Sequence record: PZ091942.1
DNA length: 64,000 nucleotides
From: a phage
Strand: one strand, 5' to 3'
In this document: positions 4,671 through 16,366 of the stretch, piece by piece
Position numbering within the stretch: position 1 is the stretch's first letter
How the letters are laid out: each line of letters opens with the position of its first letter
The notes under the pieces: model-generated
The model's input: the letters and a program-made list of their open reading frames with translations, nothing else
What the model was told of the DNA's origin: nothing
Database searches by the model: none
Program-made: the position numbers and the translations under genes

Positions 4671-4897
4671 TTTATGTTATAGGTTGGTGGTTAGCAGCCA
4701 TCGCAGTTAAGTGGTGCTTCAAAACCCATACATTCTACAACTTCTTCCATTCCTCATGGAGCGGTAAGCCTGATGAATATTCTATTTGGATGGTGATATT
4801 CTTCTGGCCTTTTATTCTGATCACTATCTTACTATTACCTTTCTTTATGTTAATAGGCTGGTTGTTGGATAAGGTGACAGCCTTTGTTACTAAGTAA
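4631..4897 (+). CDS. small membrane protein (2 predicted TM helices)
   Basis: Hydrophobic segments AAYVLLIYVIGWWLAAIAV and MVIFFWPFILITILLLPFFMLIGWLL; start may be the downstream ATG at 4643. Confidence 0.45.
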   Translation: MERSMVTAAYVLLIYVIGWWLAAIAVKWCFKTHTFYNFFHSSWSGKPDEYSIWMVIFFWPFILITILLLPFFMLIGWLLDKVTAFVTK

Positions 4898-4906
4898 TAT
4901 CGTGAA

Positions 4907-4930
4907 GGATTCTTACGAGAGTCCTTTGAG
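4907..4930 (+). terminator. terminator-like hairpin
   Basis: GGATTCT-TACG-AGAGTCC hairpin then TTTGAG directly after stop of 4631-4897. Confidence 0.4.
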
Positions 4931-5173
4931 ATAGGACTTCAGATCTCCTATCAACTAACCGCTCAATGTTGAGCATTTTAATCACATAAGCCCCTTAAGG
5001 GCTGGGTTTAATGCCGGTAAGCGTTTTACGCTATCCACTACAGCATCGGATTGTTAGGTCTTACATGCAATATTAATCAATAGGATATGGGAGGATTCGT
5101 CCCCTCCCCCTATTTATGAAAGCATTCTTCCGAGAGTTCTCTCATAAATTGGTCCATAACTAAAGGTGGTTAA

Positions 5174-5428
5174 ATGAAAGTTAACAAACCAGCAGGTAAG
5201 AGTGCAATACCTCTCAGTGCTTTGCGACTTGGGGATTGCTTCATGTACCCTAACAGTGAAGATGGTGATTTGTACATCTTATTATCTACCGAGTTCTCCA
5301 CTCGACTGTGCATCAAGGGCGCGGACGAGCACAGACTTGTAGCCTGTCTTAACACAGGCCGAGCGACAGCGCCTCGTAAAGATGTTGCTGTTATTCCTAT
5401 CAAAGCTGAAGCAACTATTAAGGAGTAA
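5174..5428 (+). CDS. small hypothetical protein, GD-x-F paralog family
   Basis: LSALRLGDCFMYPNSEDGDLY motif; first gene after a 270-nt structured intergenic region. Confidence 0.5.
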   Translation: MKVNKPAGKSAIPLSALRLGDCFMYPNSEDGDLYILLSTEFSTRLCIKGADEHRLVACLNTGRATAPRKDVAVIPIKAEATIKE

Positions 5429-5431
5429 GCA

Positions 5432-5695
5432 ATGGCTCTGACCATTAACAAAACTCGTATTGCGGATATTCCTCTAATGGTGGCAGGTGTTTCTATCGGC
5501 TCTTTCTTTACTTTGAAAGAAGATAAAGAACAAACCATTTACATGAAAGTAAACAAAAGCTCTAATGGTTGTGAATACCACCGAGCTGTGTCGATGCAGA
5601 GTGGATATGTTCGTAATATGGCATCCAATATGCCAGTTGGTGTTGTGTTTGAATCGGCAACTCTGGATTTAGTGGAGAAGATTAGTGAGACGTAA
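5432..5695 (+). CDS. small hypothetical protein
   Basis: Tightly coupled to 5174-5428; similar size and layout to the paralog family. Confidence 0.45.
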   Translation: MALTINKTRIADIPLMVAGVSIGSFFTLKEDKEQTIYMKVNKSSNGCEYHRAVSMQSGYVRNMASNMPVGVVFESATLDLVEKISET

Positions 5696-5942
5696 AGATC
5701 ATCCGAAGTATGTATCACTACTGGATGCAGTCCTTCTCTGCACATATTGGCTCCTCATTGTCGTTGGGGCTGTGCTGATGGTATGTGGTGTCGTACAGTT
5801 CTTTATGTATCTGCAAAGCGTGTTAGATATCACATTAGCTAACACTATAATCCTTGCAACTCTCGGTATTATTGCTTTCTGTGTGATTGTCTTCTTCGTT
5901 TGGTTATCTATGAACGACGACTCTACACACACCTTCTATTGA
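5685..5942 (+). CDS. small membrane protein
   Basis: Two long hydrophobic helices (LLDAVLLCTYWLLIVVGAVLMVCGVV; IILATLGIIAFCVIVFFVWL). Confidence 0.45.
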   Translation: MRRKDHPKYVSLLDAVLLCTYWLLIVVGAVLMVCGVVQFFMYLQSVLDITLANTIILATLGIIAFCVIVFFVWLSMNDDSTHTFY

Positions 5943-6140
5943 CAGGAGAAAATCAGTGAGAAAACGTGCCTACTCTGAAGAAGAAATGGTTAACTTGAAA
6001 GGCTTCGGTCAACGACAGCCTGACGGTTCAGTTATCTGGTACATTAACGGACAGAAAAAGGCAAGTAAATAAGCCCTCTTCTCTCCTCCCTTTAGCTACT
6101 ATGACGCCTCTCTTTTCGGCGCTGTTTTGGAGCTTCAAAA

Positions 6141-6554
6141 ATGTCTGGGAAATTCCCCAACGTAAGCAAGAAATTGGCTTACCTCACGTATAAAGAAAAC
6201 ATTGATCTTCTGGTCAAACTTTATCCGGCTTCATTCAACAAGCAATTCCCTCTTCCTTTGGAGCTTAACATCCATAAGGAGATCGCCCGTAAGACCGGTT
6301 GGTCAGCGGAGAAAACAAGCATGGTGCTCAACATCTGGACTACTCGTATGGAGTATGTGATGATGGCCTGTAGCACTGGTAAACGCTTCAAGCTGCACTC
6401 TGTAGCTATGAAGATCCGTAGTCCTATTGACCCTGAGCCAATGGCTGGGTTCAGCAGCCGTCTGAAATCTTTCCGTGATCGTGGTCGTGTAGTGAAGTTT
6501 AAGCACGACTTCTCTTATAAGTTTGGATACGAAGCGTTCCAATTCGTTGTTTAA
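6141..6554 (+). CDS. ProQ/FinO-domain-like RNA-binding protein (putative)
   Basis: LYPASFNKQFPLPLELNIHKEIARKTG...MVLNIWTTRMEYVMMACSTGKRFKLHS resembles the ProQ/FinO fold signature. Confidence 0.45.
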   Translation: MSGKFPNVSKKLAYLTYKENIDLLVKLYPASFNKQFPLPLELNIHKEIARKTGWSAEKTSMVLNIWTTRMEYVMMACSTGKRFKLHSVAMKIRSPIDPEPMAGFSSRLKSFRDRGRVVKFKHDFSYKFGYEAFQFVV

Positions 6555-6582
6555 TCTCTCTTTAATATAAGGTAATAAAAAC

Positions 6583-6816
6583 ATGTCTAAAGTTAGCGCA
6601 ATTGATGCCATCCGTCAGCCGTTCCAGTTTCAGTCCAAGTCAACTCAGACCCAAAGTGAACCGCGTCAGATTCGTCTGGGTGGTACAGAGAAGTCTGTGT
6701 TTGATATTGCGAAAAACAAAAGCGTAACCATCGTCGAAGGTGGTGAGCTGGTTAATGTTTCCCATCGTATCCGCACTGGCAAAACTGCCAAAGATCGTGC
6801 TAAGAAAGGTCTGTAA
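6583..6816 (+). CDS. hypothetical protein
   Basis: ATG preceded by AAGGTAATAAA, the same leader seen upstream of 28774. Confidence 0.45.
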   Translation: MSKVSAIDAIRQPFQFQSKSTQTQSEPRQIRLGGTEKSVFDIAKNKSVTIVEGGELVNVSHRIRTGKTAKDRAKKGL

Positions 6817-7067
6817 TGCAAATTGCTAATAAAACCCCTCCTGAATCAATTACCCAAGTAAAGGATATGTCACCGGGAGATGTATTTCGTGCAACGGAAT
6901 ATCCGGGGGATTTCTTTATTCGAATCCCCTCAGCATCTGTTGGTGGCATCGCTAAACCGGTAACAGCAGTTCAGCTAAGTACGGGTCATCTCTTCCGTTT
7001 AGAGATTGATATGGTTGTGATTCCTGTTCCAACAGCAATCCTCCGCTTCGACGGAGCCACAGAGTAA
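6816..7067 (+). CDS. small hypothetical protein, GD-x-F paralog family
   Basis: Paralog of 1346-1576; followed by repeat element B. Confidence 0.5.
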   Translation: MQIANKTPPESITQVKDMSPGDVFRATEYPGDFFIRIPSASVGGIAKPVTAVQLSTGHLFRLEIDMVVIPVPTAILRFDGATE

Positions 7068-7071
7068 CATC

Positions 7072-7200
7072 TATAGCCCTTGTGAGTATCAGAGGGCTAT
7101 GTGAGCTATTCTGGCTCAACTAACCTAAACTTAATTTAATCTTACCCGTATGGGGCCGATGCTAGGGAGAGGAACAGTCCTCGAACATCCGTCGGATAGA
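7072..7200. repeat. conserved intergenic element, copy B
   Basis: TATAGCCCTTGTGAGTATCAGAGGGCTATGTGAG plus GCTAGGGAGAG block; internal hairpin GAGGA-ACAG-TCCTC covaries with GAGAC-TT-GTCTC in copy A. Confidence 0.6.
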
Positions 7201-7308
7201 ATATTTTAAGAGCAGGTTATCCACAGATATTGGGTGATATCTATTTAATTGGCCTTAAAGCTTGGCTCTCTTAGGAGAGTCCTTTTTTAAGTTCAAAGAA
7301 GAGGTTGT

Positions 7309-9075: not shown

Positions 9076-10026
9076 ATGTCAATCTCCGCATCGACTGCTC
9101 CGGTAACACCATCAGAGGATTTTGGTGAGTCAGTGTTCAGAGGGCGAGCTTGTTTTGGTACTTTCAACTGTCAGCATATGTATTCTGTTACAGACATTAA
9201 CGGCGACAGTATCAATCGCTCAAACCTTCGTGACAGAACTTCAGAAATTGGAGTTATCAACTTCTGGCCTCACAACTTTTATGGCACACCAGCTAAAGAT
9301 ATCGAAAGAGCTTTAGTTGAAGCAACAGACATTTTTAACTCAATGTCTTGCTATAAAAACATGTTCTCTGTCACTTCGGTGAACTCAGTTGCCGTGAACC
9401 TTCGAGACCACCCAGCAGACAAGGTGTTTACTGGATTAATGACCCTCCGGAGTTATCTGGATGGGGATTTTATGGGAATGGAGTTCCTTCAGGAAGGCGT
9501 TCAAGACAAGGAAGAGTTACTCAAGCGACAACGAATCGGCTTAGCTTTACGCTTAGCTGGTTTAAGTCGTAACTTCTTTGGTCGTTGGGATTATTCACAC
9601 GATGTGGATACTGATGATGAATCAGCAGCGACCTATTTTAATGGTGACATGAGTGCAATTGCATTCTTGCCACTAGTCTGTACCACTGATGAATTTTCTG
9701 AAAACGTATGGGTTCAGAATGTGTTCGGTATTGACGATAACAGAGATGGTTATGTACGAAACCACAATGACGGAGTTCTCCGCAGTATGGCTCGTCGTCG
9801 TGACCAAGACCCTGACTATTACGAAAGTATGAGTGAGTGGTTACGTCTCTGGTCAATGTGTGCAGGCCACAAACGTGAAGTATTAGATCAGCGTATGGAC
9901 AGAATTACTGTTCAAAGTTTTATTGAACGTCTGATGCAAGCAGTACCTTCCTCAATGACACCAGAAGAAGCTGGTGCCCGTGTTGTTTCCCTTTTTGATG
10001 AACTCGTGGAGTATTACAATGACTAA
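9076..10026 (+). CDS. hypothetical protein (operon member)
   Basis: ATG with AGAGG RBS; 316 aa; no recognisable motif. Confidence 0.55.
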   Translation: MSISASTAPVTPSEDFGESVFRGRACFGTFNCQHMYSVTDINGDSINRSNLRDRTSEIGVINFWPHNFYGTPAKDIERALVEATDIFNSMSCYKNMFSVTSVNSVAVNLRDHPADKVFTGLMTLRSYLDGDFMGMEFLQEGVQDKEELLKRQRIGLALRLAGLSRNFFGRWDYSHDVDTDDESAATYFNGDMSAIAFLPLVCTTDEFSENVWVQNVFGIDDNRDGYVRNHNDGVLRSMARRRDQDPDYYESMSEWLRLWSMCAGHKREVLDQRMDRITVQSFIERLMQAVPSSMTPEEAGARVVSLFDELVEYYND

Positions 10027-10825
10027 GCGTGCTTTCCTTATTGGTTCTGACCCTGAAATGTTTGTTCGTACCGCTTCTGGTATTATCACCTCTGTGGCTG
10101 GTAAGCTGGGCTGTTCCAAAGATAACAAAATCGATCTGGCCCCTGATGTTCGTCTTCAAGAAGACAACGTTCTGGCTGAGTTCGATATTAACCCACAGAA
10201 AGGGTTTGAAGCGTTTGATGATAACATCCAGCGTGGTATTGATCTGACCAACAAAGTTCTCCATGAACGTGGTATGGAAGCTGCACTTGGGATTAGCTCC
10301 CATGTGTACACTTCTGAAGAGCTGGAATCATTCCACCCGTCAGCCTTCGTATTTGGCTGTACTCCTGATTTCAACGCCTTCACTGGTCAGAAAAACCCAT
10401 CTCCGGTAGCGACAGACAAAGGTCTGCGTACCGCTGGAGGTCACGTTCACCTCGGTGTTACTGGTACACTGGAAATTAGTCGTCAGACTCAGATGATGCT
10501 GGGTGTGCTGTGCGATTACTTCCTGTCACTTCCAGCGGTTGTGATGGACAAGGACACTCGTCGTAAAGAGCTTTACGGCAAGGCATCTGCGATTCGTTAT
10601 AAAGATTACGGTATTGAATATCGTTCTCTGTCAAACTTCTGGATTGGTGAACAGTCCACTCGTAAGTTTGTTTACGATCAAGTTGATAAGGTTATTCAGG
10701 GCTGTGACATGGAAACCCTCATGTCTCTGCATTCCCGTTTGCCTATCGAAAAGCTTCACAACATCATCAACAGCAACGATGTTAAAGAAGCGGATAAGTT
10801 CTCCTCTCAACTTCAGATTATCTAA
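10019..10825 (+). CDS. hypothetical protein, possible carboxylate-amine ligase-like (weak)
   Basis: ATG 10019 overlaps upstream stop (ATGACTAA); track start 9974 rejected; GSDPEMF..GCTPDF..GGHVHLG motifs. Confidence 0.5.
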   Translation: MTKRAFLIGSDPEMFVRTASGIITSVAGKLGCSKDNKIDLAPDVRLQEDNVLAEFDINPQKGFEAFDDNIQRGIDLTNKVLHERGMEAALGISSHVYTSEELESFHPSAFVFGCTPDFNAFTGQKNPSPVATDKGLRTAGGHVHLGVTGTLEISRQTQMMLGVLCDYFLSLPAVVMDKDTRRKELYGKASAIRYKDYGIEYRSLSNFWIGEQSTRKFVYDQVDKVIQGCDMETLMSLHSRLPIEKLHNIINSNDVKEADKFSSQLQII

Positions 10826-10834
10826 GGTGTTATC

Positions 10835-11461
10835 GTGAGCCTGTTAAGAGATTTTCAGCATTATTATTGCGGAACATGGATTGCCCAACGTGCAGAACGA
10901 GGGATTAATCTCCCTCTGTATGTACTCAACGTAAGCCAACCAAGCCGCTTTGGGGAAGATGACTTCTCCCACGAAGCCGAAATGGCCTTGACCTTTGAAG
11001 TTGAACGCTGGTCTAAGAACTCCGAAGGGCAGTTTGAGCGACAAGTTGTTCAGGGTATCCCTGTGTTTGATCAGAGTCTGATTCTGGAATCTCCAGATGT
11101 GGGCTATCTACAACATGGTAACAACATGGTAAGCTGGACTCATATCAACCCTGTTCGTCAGCGAGCTAAAGGTCTGATGGGGAACAAGCTGCGTGGTGCA
11201 CCTCCTTCAATGGGACGTTCAATTCCGGGAGAGCTGGTGTATAACCTGTTCAACCCTGACTTTGAAGGTCTGGTTACTCGCTTCATCTACATTAACCCTG
11301 TTGATGGTAAAGTTTATTACAAAGGGGCGCTTGTAGGTCAAGTTGATCTTTCTGCTGGTTACGGCGACAACGGTCGTCAATCTTTAAATCTTCTGGAGAA
11401 GTTCAAGCATATTTCTTCAGACCTGTCATCATATAATGTAGAGTTGGTGGAAACGTTATGA
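10835..11461 (+). CDS. hypothetical protein (operon member)
   Basis: GTG start after AAGG; ends in ATGA overlap with next gene. Confidence 0.45.
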   Translation: MSLLRDFQHYYCGTWIAQRAERGINLPLYVLNVSQPSRFGEDDFSHEAEMALTFEVERWSKNSEGQFERQVVQGIPVFDQSLILESPDVGYLQHGNNMVSWTHINPVRQRAKGLMGNKLRGAPPSMGRSIPGELVYNLFNPDFEGLVTRFIYINPVDGKVYYKGALVGQVDLSAGYGDNGRQSLNLLEKFKHISSDLSSYNVELVETL

Positions 11462-12558
11462 CAACCGTAGCACAAGTTTTTGGATACCGTAATGCTCGTC
11501 TGGCTGAGCCGCACCCAAGCATCGCTTTTCAGTGTGGTATTGGCATCGAGCTGGAAGTTGAAGGAACCTCTGAAATTGATGCAGACCTTTGGGTTTGTAC
11601 TGAAGATGGTTCACTTCGTGATGGCTGTGAGATGGTTTGCGCACGGCCTTACAACGGTGTAGAATTGCTTCGTGCTATTAACAATCTGAGTGAAGCAGTA
11701 CAAGACTCTGAAGCTGAAGGGACTTGGCGCTGCTCTACTCATGTTCATATGGATATGCGTGACGCTGATAGTAACATCCTGAAGAAAGTAATTCTTGGAT
11801 GGACGTTCTATGAAAAGATGATGTTCAAATGTTCTGGATACCATCGCTATCGTAGCAACTTCTGTCCTGCCTTTGCTGTTGTTCAAGCACAGGTAATGAA
11901 TGCTTCCGCAGCGTTCAACCGAGATGGTGAAGCCTTCTTCAACACTCTTGTTAATAGCTGGGACAAGTACACCTCCCTTAACCTATTACCTCTGGCTCAG
12001 TTTGGTTCTGTTGAGTTTCGTATCTCAGAGCCGAAGTGGAAGAAAAGCCAACTCCTGAATCTGGTCAACCGCTTCTTGGTTCTCAAGAAACTGGCTGTTG
12101 AATATGCAGATTTGGACAATGAAGCATACGTTGAGAAACTGAATGAGCTTCGCTTCGCTCCTATGATTCAGTATCTACCTCTGGACTACACGCCTAATGA
12201 TAATGATCTTACTGAAGGTTATCGTTTGGCTCGTGACATTCTGTTCTGTCGTGAACGTTCGGTTACTCTGGTTGGTCGTGTTCGTGTACAACAGACTGGC
12301 CCTGATGGTGAAGTCCTTATCAACTTGCGTGATATGGGTGACTTCTATGGTTTCTTGGGATATGTACGGGGTAATGCCAACTCTGTTTACGAAGAGATCA
12401 TGACATATTACACCCCTCAGATTGAAAACACTCGAATCGCAACGGTTCGTGAAATTCGTCACATGTTTACTTTGATGCGTGAATCAGGTAGCAGTGATGA
12501 TAACGTCACTGGTTATATTCCAGACCATCTGGAAATGCAATTAGAACGACTGCTGTAA
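11458..12558 (+). CDS. GS-like amidoligase (carboxylate-amine ligase family, putative)
   Basis: GIGIELEVEG ... TEDGSLRDGCE ... STHVHMDMRD pattern resembles glutamine-synthetase-fold amidoligases. Confidence 0.5.
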   Translation: MTTVAQVFGYRNARLAEPHPSIAFQCGIGIELEVEGTSEIDADLWVCTEDGSLRDGCEMVCARPYNGVELLRAINNLSEAVQDSEAEGTWRCSTHVHMDMRDADSNILKKVILGWTFYEKMMFKCSGYHRYRSNFCPAFAVVQAQVMNASAAFNRDGEAFFNTLVNSWDKYTSLNLLPLAQFGSVEFRISEPKWKKSQLLNLVNRFLVLKKLAVEYADLDNEAYVEKLNELRFAPMIQYLPLDYTPNDNDLTEGYRLARDILFCRERSVTLVGRVRVQQTGPDGEVLINLRDMGDFYGFLGYVRGNANSVYEEIMTYYTPQIENTRIATVREIRHMFTLMRESGSSDDNVTGYIPDHLEMQLERLL

Positions 12559-12635
12559 CACAATGGGCGCTCTGATAAAGGGCGCATTTAAAGGTTAATT
12601 AGATGAAAGGGTTTACCCTTCAGGTGGATTAGAAA

Positions 12636-14669
12636 ATTTGTGGTATCGTATTAGCTGGGGGCAACATGACCTCCACAGACTTAGACGTATTCAACCAGCT
12701 TCTGTATGCCGGAGTCTTCCGTGGTCAGCACTCAACTGGTGTGTTCGGTCAGCGTAAAAGTGATGCAAGAGTGTTTTCTTATAAAGAAGCACTTCCTTCT
12801 TATGCTTTCATGCTTCAGACAGAGTACACGAATATTACTAAGGGGCTTACGAACTATGTAGTTCCTCCAGCGTGGATTGTTGGTCATAGCCGACATGCCA
12901 CTCGTGGCGCTGTCAATGCTCGAAATGCTCACCCGTTCTCTCATGGTGACATTACTCTGGTTCACAATGGTACATTGATGGACCAAGAGCTGTTACCTGA
13001 CCATAAGAACTTCGAAGTTGATAGCGAAAACATCTGTCATTCAATCAACACCATTGGTGCAGCAGAGACTATCCAGAAGTTGGATGGTGCGTTCACTTTA
13101 ATCTGGCATGATGCCAAAGACAATACTCTGCATATCATTCGTAACGATGAACGTCCTTTCCATCTGGCCCGTTGTGGTCTGGATTGGTTTGGTGCTTCTG
13201 AAGAAGATATGTTGATGTGGATTCTTAATCGTTCCAAGTCACACAAGAACCGTATCAATGATCACTTTGAATGTAAAGTGGGAACTGAATACATCTTTGA
13301 TTTGTCTGGCAACCGTATGACTCTGACTCAAGAGGTGGAGCACAAGCTTCCGGTTTTTACGGTAACGAGTCGCTGGGGCGGCTATTACTCGAACTCCTCT
13401 CTATATCAGAACCAACAGACAAACAAATCAAGCAGCAGCACAAGCGACATTTACGGAAACAAAGACGACAAGCCCGGCGTGACAAGCGGGGACATTCGCC
13501 GTCGTAAAGCGATTGAAGATCAGAATAAACTGGCTGCCGATCGTGGTCTTCCATATCGTCGTGATGGTCGTGTGGATATCATCCCTCACGAGTTCCATGC
13601 TTACAACAACACTGACCGTGGTAAGATGGTTGGTTATATTTATGATGATGCTGCTCAAGAATATGTTGAGGGTGATGTTCATAATGTAGCCAAGAGTGAG
13701 TACTTGAAGGCTCTCGAAAACCCAAAGGTAGTGTATCGCGGGACAGTTGCTTGTATCTCCGAAGTGGACAGTATGATTCGCCTCGTACTCACTTCAGGGC
13801 TGTTTGTTGATGCTACCGATAAGGAGCCTCAAAGCACTACCGCTGATTTTGATGATGATATCCCTTTTGATTTAGAAGACTCCTTCATCACTAAGAATGG
13901 TGTGGAAGTCACTCGTAAGTTCTGGGAATCTCATTCTCATGGTGATTGTGGCGGTTGTGACAAGCACATTGAATGGAAAGATGCTAAGAAAGCTGTGTTC
14001 GCTTACCAAGCATATTGGCATCCGGCCTGTTTCGAAGCATTGTCCAAACCATCGGAAGAAGATGAAGACATCCCTTTAGGTGTCTGTGCTGTGTGTGGCA
14101 ATGTTAAAACTGATTTCGAGTTTGATAACGAAATGAGTAAACTTCGTGGTGAAGATATTTGTTATGTCTGTGCCAAAGAAATCAAAGACAAAGTGACTAA
14201 CACTACATTGTCTGAAGGTTACATTTGGACTAAAGCAGTTGACACAACTAACCCACGCCGCCCTGAAGTAGCAGTTCGTGTTGATCAGCGTATGCTTAGC
14301 CGGATGATCGTAATGGTTAGCTCAGCTAAGCGTTCTGGAGACATTGAACTGTCTGATGTTCCTAATTCTTATTTGGAGAAACGTGGTGGTGATACTTATG
14401 CCATCTCTGTTTATGGTCCAAAGAATGCCCCAAAGGAGGTGCCCGCTGAGAAAGCGGAAACATTTCCAGAAAAACAAACAACTCTCCGAAAAACAGTTGT
14501 CAGTTACGATGGACAGCGAACAGCTGAGTTCACAAAAGCCCTCTGGACTTCAATTGGGTTTTGTGCAGTCTGTTATAAACAAATTCCGTGGCGTGATGCA
14601 GAAGTTTGCTCACTAAACAAAGAAAACAGGGTGATCTGTAATTCAGATTACTGTAAAGGTAAACATTAA
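12636..14669 (+). CDS. class II (Ntn) glutamine amidotransferase domain protein with Cys-rich C-terminal domain; probable AUU start
   Basis: GHSRHATRG..NAHPF..HNG motifs; in-frame CGIV lies upstream of track ATG 12666 with no stop between; AGGTGG 8 nt upstream of ATT 12636; C-terminal CxxC pairs. Confidence 0.6.
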   Translation: MCGIVLAGGNMTSTDLDVFNQLLYAGVFRGQHSTGVFGQRKSDARVFSYKEALPSYAFMLQTEYTNITKGLTNYVVPPAWIVGHSRHATRGAVNARNAHPFSHGDITLVHNGTLMDQELLPDHKNFEVDSENICHSINTIGAAETIQKLDGAFTLIWHDAKDNTLHIIRNDERPFHLARCGLDWFGASEEDMLMWILNRSKSHKNRINDHFECKVGTEYIFDLSGNRMTLTQEVEHKLPVFTVTSRWGGYYSNSSLYQNQQTNKSSSSTSDIYGNKDDKPGVTSGDIRRRKAIEDQNKLAADRGLPYRRDGRVDIIPHEFHAYNNTDRGKMVGYIYDDAAQEYVEGDVHNVAKSEYLKALENPKVVYRGTVACISEVDSMIRLVLTSGLFVDATDKEPQSTTADFDDDIPFDLEDSFITKNGVEVTRKFWESHSHGDCGGCDKHIEWKDAKKAVFAYQAYWHPACFEALSKPSEEDEDIPLGVCAVCGNVKTDFEFDNEMSKLRGEDICYVCAKEIKDKVTNTTLSEGYIWTKAVDTTNPRRPEVAVRVDQRMLSRMIVMVSSAKRSGDIELSDVPNSYLEKRGGDTYAISVYGPKNAPKEVPAEKAETFPEKQTTLRKTVVSYDGQRTAEFTKALWTSIGFCAVCYKQIPWRDAEVCSLNKENRVICNSDYCKGKH

Positions 14670-14680
14670 GAGGTGAAGTT

Positions 14681-14914
14681 ATGGAAGTTCGTAAATTGAT
14701 GTTGGATAACGTTGTAACCACTCGACGTATCCCAATGACAAGCACAGGATGTGACAACCTTCGAGCTATTCAGAAATGGATGCAAGAGGGTATTGGGGGA
14801 CTGGTTAACTCTCCAGTTGAAATTCCTTTCCCAACCGTTATCAACAACGTGTTGGCTGACTATGTGAAATTGAAGGGGATTAAAGTTGAGCCTCATGTCA
14901 AGCAAGGGAGCTAA
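14681..14914 (+). CDS. hypothetical protein
   Basis: ATG with AAGAGG RBS; 77 aa. Confidence 0.45.
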   Translation: MEVRKLMLDNVVTTRRIPMTSTGCDNLRAIQKWMQEGIGGLVNSPVEIPFPTVINNVLADYVKLKGIKVEPHVKQGS

Positions 14915-15116
14915 GCCTCACCTGACAATGCTGGAGTATCAACAACTCCGACTTCAACAACTGGTAACGGAGCAGCGAAAGCTGTATCCGTTTGCTTTTA
15001 ACCTAATTGATTCACCAAGCGATGACCAAGAAGACGAGATGTTCGCCAAGTATTGGGAAATCGAAGTTAAAATTCAATCCTGTCGTAACGAAATTCTTAA
15101 ACTAAAAGGTATCTAA
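14886..15116 (+). CDS. hypothetical protein (start uncertain)
   Basis: Track start is TTG; in-frame ATGs at 14895 and 14928; no clear RBS. Confidence 0.35.
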   Translation: MSLMSSKGAKPHLTMLEYQQLRLQQLVTEQRKLYPFAFNLIDSPSDDQEDEMFAKYWEIEVKIQSCRNEILKLKGI

Positions 15117-15118
15117 AA

Positions 15119-16366
15119 ATGACTACTCGTATCCGTGTTCTTCCGTATGGCCCTTCTGATTCTGTTAACGCTCTGGTAACTGCCATTAATGATACTATCC
15201 GTGATGAACGTATCAACGCTAACGTAATGGGTCTTCTTTCAGAGAACAGCCGCTGGCGTTCTCGTGAAGGTGATGTGGTTGTGAACTACGGGAACCGTCG
15301 CTATCCTGAATCATTCTTTGGTTCTGCAACTGTTCTGAACAGCACAGCATCTCTGCATATGGCAGCGAACAAGCGTCGTGCTTTTAGCGTGATGGACCAA
15401 GCAGGTGTTAAAACAGTTGAATATACAGATGTTCAATCAACTGCTCAAGAGTGGTCAAACTCTGGCAATATTGTGTATGAGCGTCATGAACTGACTGGTC
15501 ACTCTGGTTCAGGCATTGTTGTTGTAGAGCCTCGTGATTCGGTTGGTCAAGCTGAACTGTACACCAAAGGTATCCTAGGCCCACGTCGTGAATGGCGTGT
15601 CCATGTGTTCAAAGGTGCTATCACCTATGTTCAGAAAAAGATTCGTCGTAACGGTTATCGTGAAGACCCTAACTATCGTGAAGATGTTCGTAACCATCAC
15701 ACTGGTTGGGTTTACTCAAGTTCCTTCACAGACGTTCCGAACGACACCTCTCTGATCAACGCAGTGAAAGCTGTTGAATCAATGGGTCTGGATTTCGGTG
15801 CAGTTGATATCATCACCAAAGGTCAAGAAGCATGGGTACTGGAAGTTAATACAGCACCGGGCCTAACTGGCACAACTCTGGATATCTACCGTCATAATAT
15901 CCTTGAGTTTGTTAAAGCTCAAAACCCTCTTTATACTCCTCAGTATAAAGTAGTTTACCAGACTCCTGTTGAAGCTCCAATCGAAGACGGAGACGGTGAG
16001 TTGGTTGCTGACAGTGAAAGTGCTGACGATGAAAACTTTGCACTGGAAGGCCAAGTAGCACAACCGGTTGATTCAGTTGATGTGGTTCCTGAAGAAATGC
16101 AACTGGAAGGTCAGATGAATACTCAAACTATTCGTAATGCACCTACTGGTTATGTGTTGTCTCGTGGTTATTGGATTGCCAACATCCGTCATGTTCATAA
16201 CAACCTGCAACCAAATGCAATGGCTGCCAATGTCATTCTGTTCTGTGATGGTCGTAACTTCTACCGCTCTGGTTGGAACGTTCCGGTCAATCCAGTCCAG
16301 ATTCATAACCCTCGCAAGTTAGAATCTGTCAATGTTGAAGGTAGTGAAGTAGCAGTAACTCTGTAA
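15119..16366 (+). CDS. ATP-grasp ligase (RimK-like)
   Basis: GHSGSGIVVVE and GAVDIIT..EAWVLEVNTAPGL match ATP-grasp nucleotide-binding motifs. Confidence 0.65.
   Translation: MTTRIRVLPYGPSDSVNALVTAINDTIRDERINANVMGLLSENSRWRSREGDVVVNYGNRRYPESFFGSATVLNSTASLHMAANKRRAFSVMDQAGVKTVEYTDVQSTAQEWSNSGNIVYERHELTGHSGSGIVVVEPRDSVGQAELYTKGILGPRREWRVHVFKGAITYVQKKIRRNGYREDPNYREDVRNHHTGWVYSSSFTDVPNDTSLINAVKAVESMGLDFGAVDIITKGQEAWVLEVNTAPGLTGTTLDIYRHNILEFVKAQNPLYTPQYKVVYQTPVEAPIEDGDGELVADSESADDENFALEGQVAQPVDSVDVVPEEMQLEGQMNTQTIRNAPTGYVLSRGYWIANIRHVHNNLQPNAMAANVILFCDGRNFYRSGWNVPVNPVQIHNPRKLESVNVEGSEVAVTL

Follow-up and report, generated by a model that had tools for sequence, protein, structure and literature searches.

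Gene and genomic context

The window analysed here is a stretch of 64,000 nucleotides from phage sequence record PZ091942.1 and, judged from its sequence, it belongs to a phiEco32-like virulent podophage of E. coli, of the Suseptimavirus type. Within a run of small genes (Table 1) it carries a gene for a strongly basic protein (pI 10.0; 24 Lys and Arg residues versus 11 Asp and Glu), which the original prediction had described as a ProQ/FinO-domain-like RNA-binding protein of 137 amino acids; the two peptide stretches it had quoted as the hallmark of the fold are both present in the translation. A ribosome-binding site is annotated in phage SU7 at the place equivalent to the GGAG motif read upstream of the start codon.

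Table 1. Features at and around the FinO-like gene (coordinates of the 64,000-nt window)
Feature	Coordinates	Strand	Basis
Conserved structured non-coding element, core	4924..5119	+	Fold z-score, phage matches, covariation
Putative transcription unit, seven small same-strand genes	5174..7067	+	Inferred from ORF list and SU7 annotation
Unit members	5174-5428, 5432-5695, 5685-5942, 5956-6072, 6141-6554, 6583-6816, 6816-7067	+	ORF list
GGAG ribosome-binding site (Shine-Dalgarno), 8 nt 5' of the ATG at 6141	6129..6132	+	Read from sequence
CDS of the FinO/ProQ-domain protein, 137 aa	6141..6554 (stop included)	+	ATG-initiated ORF
FinO domain proper, about residues 10-110	6168..6470	+	Model secondary structure, superposition, hmmalign
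Clade-specific C-terminal extension, residues 111-137 (helix 114-128 and tail)	6471..6551	+	Model
Intrinsic-terminator-like hairpin (7264-7281) with C-U6 tail, closing the unit	7264..7288	+	Terminator scan, MFE fold

The ORF is a true, constrained gene and not a chance reading frame. Relative to six orthologs (phages SU7, HC-25922, IME267, EK010, 101114UKE3 and MLP3), it shows 18-21 synonymous and only 3-6.5 non-synonymous changes, with dS of about 0.25-0.29 and dN/dS of 0.04-0.07; for divergent pairs among all seven genes, the corresponding values were about 0.25-0.31 and 0.04-0.10. The product also matches PHROG 18901, a group of unknown function (E 1.7e-62). The 5' leader (6073-6175) folds no better than shuffled sequences (z +0.21), and promoter-like sites in the region of the gene were below chance expectation (13 found, 23.1 expected). 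No convincing antisense promoter/terminator pair emerged at the gene from the promoter and terminator scans. The promoter-like site at 6591-6564 and the terminator-like site at 6160-6145, both on the minus strand, are weak consensus matches only and were rejected as evidence for an antisense RNA.

Compared over 3 kb around the gene, the window shares 97% identity with phage ECBP2 and 92% with vB_EcoP_SU7, a classified member of Gordonclarkvirinae, Suseptimavirus. Alignment with phiEco32 pairs 5968-6121 with phi32_94 and its downstream spacer and 6583-6818 with phi32_93; the 461 nt that separate these two homologs, and in which the FinO-like gene lies, correspond to only 59 nt in phiEco32. In Kuravirus, the sister genus, the gene is missing from this position. 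By tblastn, 22 E. coli phage records contain the protein at ≥95% identity and none at 60-95%, whereas the DNA flanking the gene was matched by 98 to 115 phiEco32-like records. Orthologs of 98.5-100% identity are carried by the BASEL phages Bas87 and Bas88. Because the gene is missing at the same position in phiEco32, and because its flanks are so much more widespread than the protein, it is, by genome comparison, an accessory early gene of the Suseptimavirus-type lineage.

The early assignment is based on synteny. The early genes of phage SU10 are CDS 69-125, in an architecture stated to match that of phiEco32 (PMC4281155), and by synteny with these two phages the run of small genes around the FinO-like gene would fall within the early block transcribed by the sigma-70 polymerase (PMC4281155; PMC8948821). 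The middle/late promoter motif of phiEco32, TAATGTATA, occurs in the window at chance frequency when one mismatch is allowed, and its exact copies are found only at or beyond 28 kb; this placement is consistent with, and not proof of, a position of the FinO-like gene outside the middle and late units. The annotation of SU7 places a predicted promoter directly before the corresponding unit of seven genes and a terminator behind it; the genes would form one operon. Pfam and PHROGs scans gave no functional clue from the neighbours in the unit, all of which are of unknown function.

Several features of the neighbourhood can be mentioned in their own right. Three paralogous proteins of about 84 aa (5174-5428, 5432-5695 and 6816-7067) flank the FinO-like gene; their PHROGs (7832, 12612 and 6570) cross-match, and homologs are also located near the FinO-like gene of Salmonella phage PKM.Hi.22.6. 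Directly 5' of the FinO-like gene, a conserved ORF of 38 aa (5956-6072, + strand), homologous to phi32_94 and matching PHROG 14557 (E 1e-27), has its own AGGAGA ribosome-binding site. Downstream of the small genes, the region 9974-16366 (+ strand) codes for a phiEco32-type COOH-NH2 ligase, an amidoligase, a class-II glutamine amidotransferase and a RimK-like ATP-grasp protein.

Assignment to the FinO/ProQ family

Taken alone, the protein gives a borderline profile match: Pfam family PF04352 (ProQ/FinO) was matched over residues 18-87 with 27.2 bits (E 4e-6), only 0.2 bits above the gathering score of 27.0. It was the only significant Pfam family in the protein. A single-sequence phmmer search of the PDB returned nothing meaningful (best E 1.1) and a word-indexed homolog search returned the protein's own cluster alone. 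By contrast, when 1.84 billion cluster representatives were searched exhaustively with phmmer, 45 relatives were obtained at E ≤1e-3, 38 of which were aligned with the query to give a set of 39 sequences, referred to below as the clade. PF04352 was matched by 39 of 39 members, with a best E of 1.7e-20. The profile of the clade reached five solved FinO-domain protein families that were out of reach of the single sequence, the N-terminal domain of E. coli ProQ being the best match (E 1e-15, 61 bits), followed by RocC (1e-12), FinO (5e-11), Legionella Lpp1663 (5e-10) and NMB1681 (6e-7).

The AlphaFold2 model obtained from the same alignment (pLDDT 93.1, pTM 0.86) predicts one compact domain with an extra helix, the domain being a helical bundle with a beta-hairpin as expected of the FinO-domain fold. 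When the model was compared with the PDB by Foldseek, the top 26 matches were all FinO-domain structures (probability 1.00) and the next match had an E of about 1. It superposes on NMB1681, RocC and FinO over about 97-98 residues at 2.6-3.5 Å. The fold assignment is therefore secure within the limits of a predicted structure. Of the checks that had been proposed for the original prediction, profile comparison and structure prediction came out in its favour, and the description as a ProQ/FinO-domain-like protein is borne out by Pfam, by the clade profile and by the predicted fold.

A small regulator of the winged-helix type, binding DNA rather than RNA, was considered because of a Pfam match to DUF7343 (residues 46-64, E 6e-4) and of weak Foldseek matches to GntR and BusR. 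The DUF7343 match, with 20 bits, is below its cutoff of 27.6 and is limited to one of the 39 clade members, and the structural matches to HTH proteins are insignificant. We regard this alternative as highly improbable and rejected it on these grounds.

The domain call itself is not new, as it is already found in automatic annotation. The SU7 ortholog (98% identical) is named 'ProQ/FinO domain-containing protein' in UniProt/BFVD, and the cluster to which the 137-aa protein belongs has PF04352 as its precomputed Pfam tag; in all GenBank records examined, the gene product is a 'hypothetical protein'. When all 626 six-frame ORFs of 40 aa or longer were screened by hmmsearch, no second FinO-like ORF was detected in the window.

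RNA-contact residues and the C-terminal extension

In the model, the FinO domain comprises helices 10-27, 44-52, 56-68, 70-79 and 98-110 and a beta-hairpin at 81-95, and it holds the N-cap residue Ser55 as well as the pocket residues Thr67, Tyr72 and Arg82. Residues of the query and of the clade were mapped onto ProQ and RocC with hmmalign. The mapping can be considered checked, because its numbering reproduces the residue numbers given in the paper on the RocC-RocR crystal structure.

In RocC, the pocket that receives the 3'-terminal nucleotide is made of Y87 and R97 (Y70 and R80 in ProQ), with T82 and G52 nearby (PMC9674577). This Tyr/Arg pair represents the two most conserved residues of the family and is essential for RNA binding (PMC7192607, PMC9674577). 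The pair is present in the phage protein as Y72 and R82, each of them invariant in 39 of 39 clade members, and the pocket threonine is kept as T67. Further residues, W66, R69 and E71, are invariant in a clade-specific manner (W66 and R69 in 39/39); R69 is the equivalent of RocC R84, beside the pocket-lining R83. Since Y72, R82 and R69 have remained invariant even though identity within the clade has fallen to about 25-40%, the 3'-end pocket seems to be still in use, and its conservation points to a pocket that is under selection and presumably functional.

The N-cap region is only partly preserved. The serine that in RocC (S70) caps the helix binding three consecutive hairpin phosphates (PMC9674577) is present as S55 (S53 in ProQ) and is Ser or Thr in 29 of the 39 clade members. 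The basic residues of this region are replaced: A56 stands in place of RocC K71 (ProQ K54) and S60 in place of RocC R75 (ProQ R58). In the clade, Lys or Arg occupies the first position in 8/39 members and Arg the second in 6/39. This arginine is about 80% conserved across the family, and its substitution in RocC (R75D) results in a more than 100-fold loss of affinity (PMC9674577). The N-cap contacts of RocC are partly made through main-chain NH groups (PMC9674577), so that function may persist despite A56 and S60.

Additional replacements relative to ProQ are K35 to E41, G37 to N43, R62 to N64, D82 to K84 and G85 to S87. In a three-hybrid assay, single substitutions at K35, G37, K54, R58, D82 and G85 of ProQ impaired the interaction with RNA (PMC7192607). 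The position of N43 is that of the nearly invariant glycine in the beta-turn of the pocket (RocC G52, ProQ G37); it is Gly in 35/39 members of the clade and Asn in 3/39. Asparagine commonly substitutes for glycine in turns, and Asn43 may therefore be tolerated. With six ProQ contact residues replaced (E41, N43, A56, S60, K84, S87), RNA binding may not be quite ProQ- or RocC-like; to judge by these positions, the hairpin is probably held differently than in both proteins, with a correspondingly different specificity.

A second distinctive part is the C-terminal extension, modelled with confidence (pLDDT 95-98 in the final three 10-residue blocks) and shared by about one half of the clade members, in which it follows the pattern F..F...FG..AF. 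It falls outside the approximately 98 residues that superpose on solved FinO domains, whereas the phage 7-11 protein could be aligned to the model over 123 columns, with a query-normalised TM-score of 0.79. The beta-hairpin of the 137-aa protein is also three residues longer and more basic.

It may be asked whether the FinO fold was kept while canonical RNA binding was lost or repurposed. The protein would then act via protein-protein contacts. It might, for instance, inhibit or serve as a decoy for a host factor that works with ProQ-bound RNAs; an RNase, poly(A) polymerase or Lon could be such a factor. The replacement of residues needed for binding in ProQ and RocC speaks for this alternative, as does the extra helix, which is unmatched within the aligned portion of solved FinO domains. 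However, the invariance of Y72, R82 and R69 over so divergent a clade and the very basic character of the protein argue against it, and N-cap positions vary in other FinO-domain proteins too (PMC9674577). We therefore hold a loss of canonical RNA binding to be decidedly unlikely.

Structured RNAs in the vicinity of the gene

Terminator-like hairpins are enriched in the first 12 kb of the window, where 16 were found versus 8.2 ± 2.9 expected. The one that closes the unit corresponds in place to a terminator annotated in SU7. Its MFE fold shows pairing between the U tail and the A-rich 5' flank, a feature typical of top ProQ ligands (PMC12001967), which makes this terminator a candidate ligand of the type preferred by ProQ. 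The terminator stands at the end of a 228-nt non-coding tail of the unit (7068-7295, + strand) which folds better than its shuffles (z -2.71) and is about 85% identical in phiEco32.

A second structured RNA is predicted immediately 5' of the unit, about 1 kb upstream of the FinO-like gene. The non-coding stretch in question (4898-5173, 276 nt) folds far better than shuffled sequences (z -3.89), and its core was matched in 151 phage records. Identity amounts to 97-98% in Suseptimavirus-type phages, about 77% in Kuravirus and 72% in Salmonella phage PKM.Hi.22.6 (Grimontviridae); it is 69-80% in Gamaleyavirus, N4-like members of the unrelated family Schitoviridae, where the element lies in a non-coding region of tRNA genes. 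An alignment of 11 sequences supports a four-helix consensus with 95.8% of cells paired and compensatory changes at five pairs; its covariation score was reached by none of 500 shuffles. Several G-U pairs fit the + strand. The hairpin at 5089-5108, the last of the element, resembles a terminator, and the stretch also contains the invariant block TGTTAGGTCTTACATG and two segments, CUAAC and GUUAG, that might pair over a long distance. An Rfam scan of the window reported a tRNA-Arg only, and nothing in 4850-5200 even at E values up to 10. In PKM.Hi.22.6, too, the element precedes the FinO-like gene of the phage, at a distance of about 1 kb that holds four small genes. These data suggest that the element may be an undescribed phage non-coding RNA shared by horizontal transfer, which merits attention as a finding of its own.

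The terminator-like hairpin at 5089-5108 can be proposed as a candidate ligand of the FinO-like protein, and as a candidate only. Both 4898-5173 and 7068-7295 are conserved in phages that do not have the FinO-like gene, and for this reason they were rejected as FinO-specific ligands and no such claim is made.

Distribution of the phage clade

Relatives of the protein were found in several unrelated phage groups with genomes of roughly 75-100 kb and a lytic-phage gene content throughout. They include Salmonella phage 7-11 and related Grimontviridae, the phiEa21-4 group of Erwinia, Salmonella and Hafnia phages (Ounavirinae), Aeromonas Lahexavirus, Shewanella phage KASIA and rhizobial phages. A few depositors named such proteins 'proQ' or 'RNA chaperone' by similarity. 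Among 72,556 plasmids, only one marginal tblastn match was obtained (E 7e-3), which sets the clade apart from the plasmid lineage; it represents a phage lineage distinct from FinO and FopA. According to reviews, phage-encoded proteins are found within the heterogeneous branch of the family (PMC9977716), and the description of KASIA mentions a FinO-like protein in an early region, such proteins being rare in phages (PMC8541194). Experimental work on a phage member of the FinO/ProQ family, including binding, was not found in the literature searched.

Size variation was observed within the clade. Five of the aligned sequences are long forms (227-250 aa), in which a further C-terminal domain of about 100 aa is present, and AEK82037.1 of phage 7-11 (2983-3687 of locus L002) is a long form as well. 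This extra domain has a conserved G-N-H-P-F/L motif and no Pfam match and, by Pfam, is unlike the Tudor-like domain of ProQ. Phage 7-11 also appears to have a second, shorter protein with the FinO fold (G0X575, annotated as uncharacterised), and Cronobacter phage GAP52 likewise encodes one protein of this fold (K4F7Y7; BFVD Foldseek E about 1e-6).

In five contexts other than the window, the homolog is separated by no more than one gene from a pair of Prs-like and Nampt-like genes. These are phage 7-11, Erwinia phage Pistou and three metagenomic contig sets (L009, L010-L012 and L016), the latter carrying the three closest relatives from outside Suseptimavirus. The FinO-like gene is 5' of the pair in four cases and 3' in one. 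The pair has the Pfam signature of NARP1 (Adps and Namat), a proven counter-defence pathway by which phages rebuild NAD+ against NAD+-depleting defences (bioRxiv 10.1101/2024.02.11.579819). This adjacency could reflect a functional coupling or merely a shared accessory block.

It raises the question of whether the protein is chiefly a counter-defence factor, with RNA binding as its means, for example by stabilising or sequestering a host RNA that provokes abortive infection through its decay or its activity. Such a role is compatible with RNA binding and not opposed to it. It would suit an accessory gene of the early block that is present in Suseptimavirus-type phages and missing at the same spot in phiEco32, as well as the repeated proximity to a NARP1-signature pair in a gene order that varies by lineage. 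However, the window has no homolog of Prs or Nampt, the pair is also missing from three or four other contexts examined, the adjacency may only mirror the shared early accessory block, and no defence system is implicated. As the principal function, counter-defence is in our opinion unlikely.

Proposed function

FinO-domain proteins recognise the base of an intrinsic-terminator hairpin together with its 3' tail, bury the 3' end and protect the RNA, and they sometimes accelerate RNA-RNA pairing (PMC9674577; PMC7491321). ProQ is reported to prevent mRNA degradation through inhibition of poly(A) polymerase (PMC12086684). A phage copy made early in infection would most simply protect selected transcripts in the same way, and the most likely function of the 137-aa protein is, in our analysis, binding of hairpin-plus-3'-tail RNA ends during this period.

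The explanation we favour, and consider likely as a whole, is that of a minimal single-domain protein of the FinO/ProQ family, encoded by an accessory early gene of a virulent Suseptimavirus-type E. coli phage. Early in infection, it would dock on RNAs ending in a hairpin and a short pyrimidine-rich 3' tail and bury their 3' end. The bound RNAs would be shielded from 3' exonucleases and polyadenylation, as is the case with ProQ, FinO and FopA, and their pairing with partner RNAs might be sped up. The hairpin would be gripped in a different manner, with the N-cap residues K71/R75 of RocC (K54/R58 of ProQ) replaced and with invariant Arg69 and the C-terminal helix added. Likely targets would be early transcripts of the phage, with candidate sites at the terminator (7264-7288) and in the structured element whose last hairpin is 5089-5108, or, with equal weight, host sRNAs of the ProQ class. 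Action on structured phage RNAs or on host sRNAs, as put forward in the original prediction, is plausible on circumstantial evidence. The gene, the fold, the conserved pocket and the early accessory position are the supported steps of this scheme, the remaining ones being derived from the family.

A more far-reaching reading would see in the phage clade a distinct type of FinO-domain protein: an early accessory protein 'capping' RNA 3' ends by means of a re-engineered hairpin surface, from which the N-cap Lys/Arg residues were lost and to which the invariant Arg69 and the C-terminal helix were added. Virulent phages would employ it as a tool of counter-defence or host takeover, by which, for example, certain RNAs would outlast the shut-off of host transcription. 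It fits the repeated NARP1-type linkage of the clade and the place of the gene 3' of a horizontally shared structured element, and we put it forward as a speculation of low probability.

With regard to its significance, the protein adds, on sequence grounds, a new member to a known family, from which it diverges to some extent; the annotation is sound but hardly surprising. The three major classes of bacterial sRNA chaperones include the FinO/ProQ proteins, which phages encode according to reviews (PMC9977716). The protein offers a clean test case, as it consists of a single small domain, is present in the Suseptimavirus type and missing at the same position in Kuravirus, and has as host E. 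coli, whose ProQ regulon is well mapped. If it binds RNA 3' ends without the N-cap Lys/Arg residues, this would reveal which parts of a FinO domain are truly required for RNA recognition.

Comparison with known FinO-domain proteins

FinO of F-like plasmids (PDB 1dvo) and FopA are plasmid-encoded and have distinctive N-terminal extensions, whereas the gene described here belongs to a virulent phage genome and its domain starts at about residue 10. The target of each plasmid protein is a cognate cis-antisense RNA from the same replicon (FinP/traJ and Inc/repZ, respectively); no antisense RNA was identified at the phage gene. RocC of Legionella pneumophila (PDB 7rgt; 7rgu with the RocR terminator) differs by K71, R75 and G52, to which A56, S60 and N43 correspond in the phage protein; RocC moreover extends into a long C-terminal region, serves a single dedicated sRNA and functions in competence (PMC9674577). 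The minimal ProQ of Neisseria meningitidis, NMB1681 (PDB 3mw6), is chromosomal and is reported to be a global RNA binder in its host (PMC7272453). The phage-encoded protein shares only about 20% identity with it; its beta-hairpin is longer, its C-terminal helix differs, and basic residues are missing from its N-cap.

Members of the same phage clade, at 28-41% identity, are G0X555 of Salmonella phage 7-11, 'proQ' of the Erwinia phiEa21-4 group, proteins of the Aeromonas LAh phages and p031 of Shewanella phage KASIA. Most other FinO-like proteins of phages were annotated as RNA chaperones by similarity only, or left hypothetical. The KASIA gene is also found in an early region (PMC8541194), as is the gene of the window. 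Some of the other phage proteins, with 227-250 aa and an extra C-terminal domain, are longer than the 137-aa protein, and several of their genes adjoin NARP1-like genes, which the gene of the window does not.

The N-terminal FinO domain of E. coli ProQ (PDB 5nb9) remains the best profile match, and its residues Y70 and R80 are conserved in the phage protein. ProQ proper has a three-part architecture, in which this domain is followed by a basic linker and a Tudor-like C-terminal domain, whereas the phage protein lacks such an arrangement. As both proteins occur in the same host species, the phage protein would meet the same RNA pool as ProQ.
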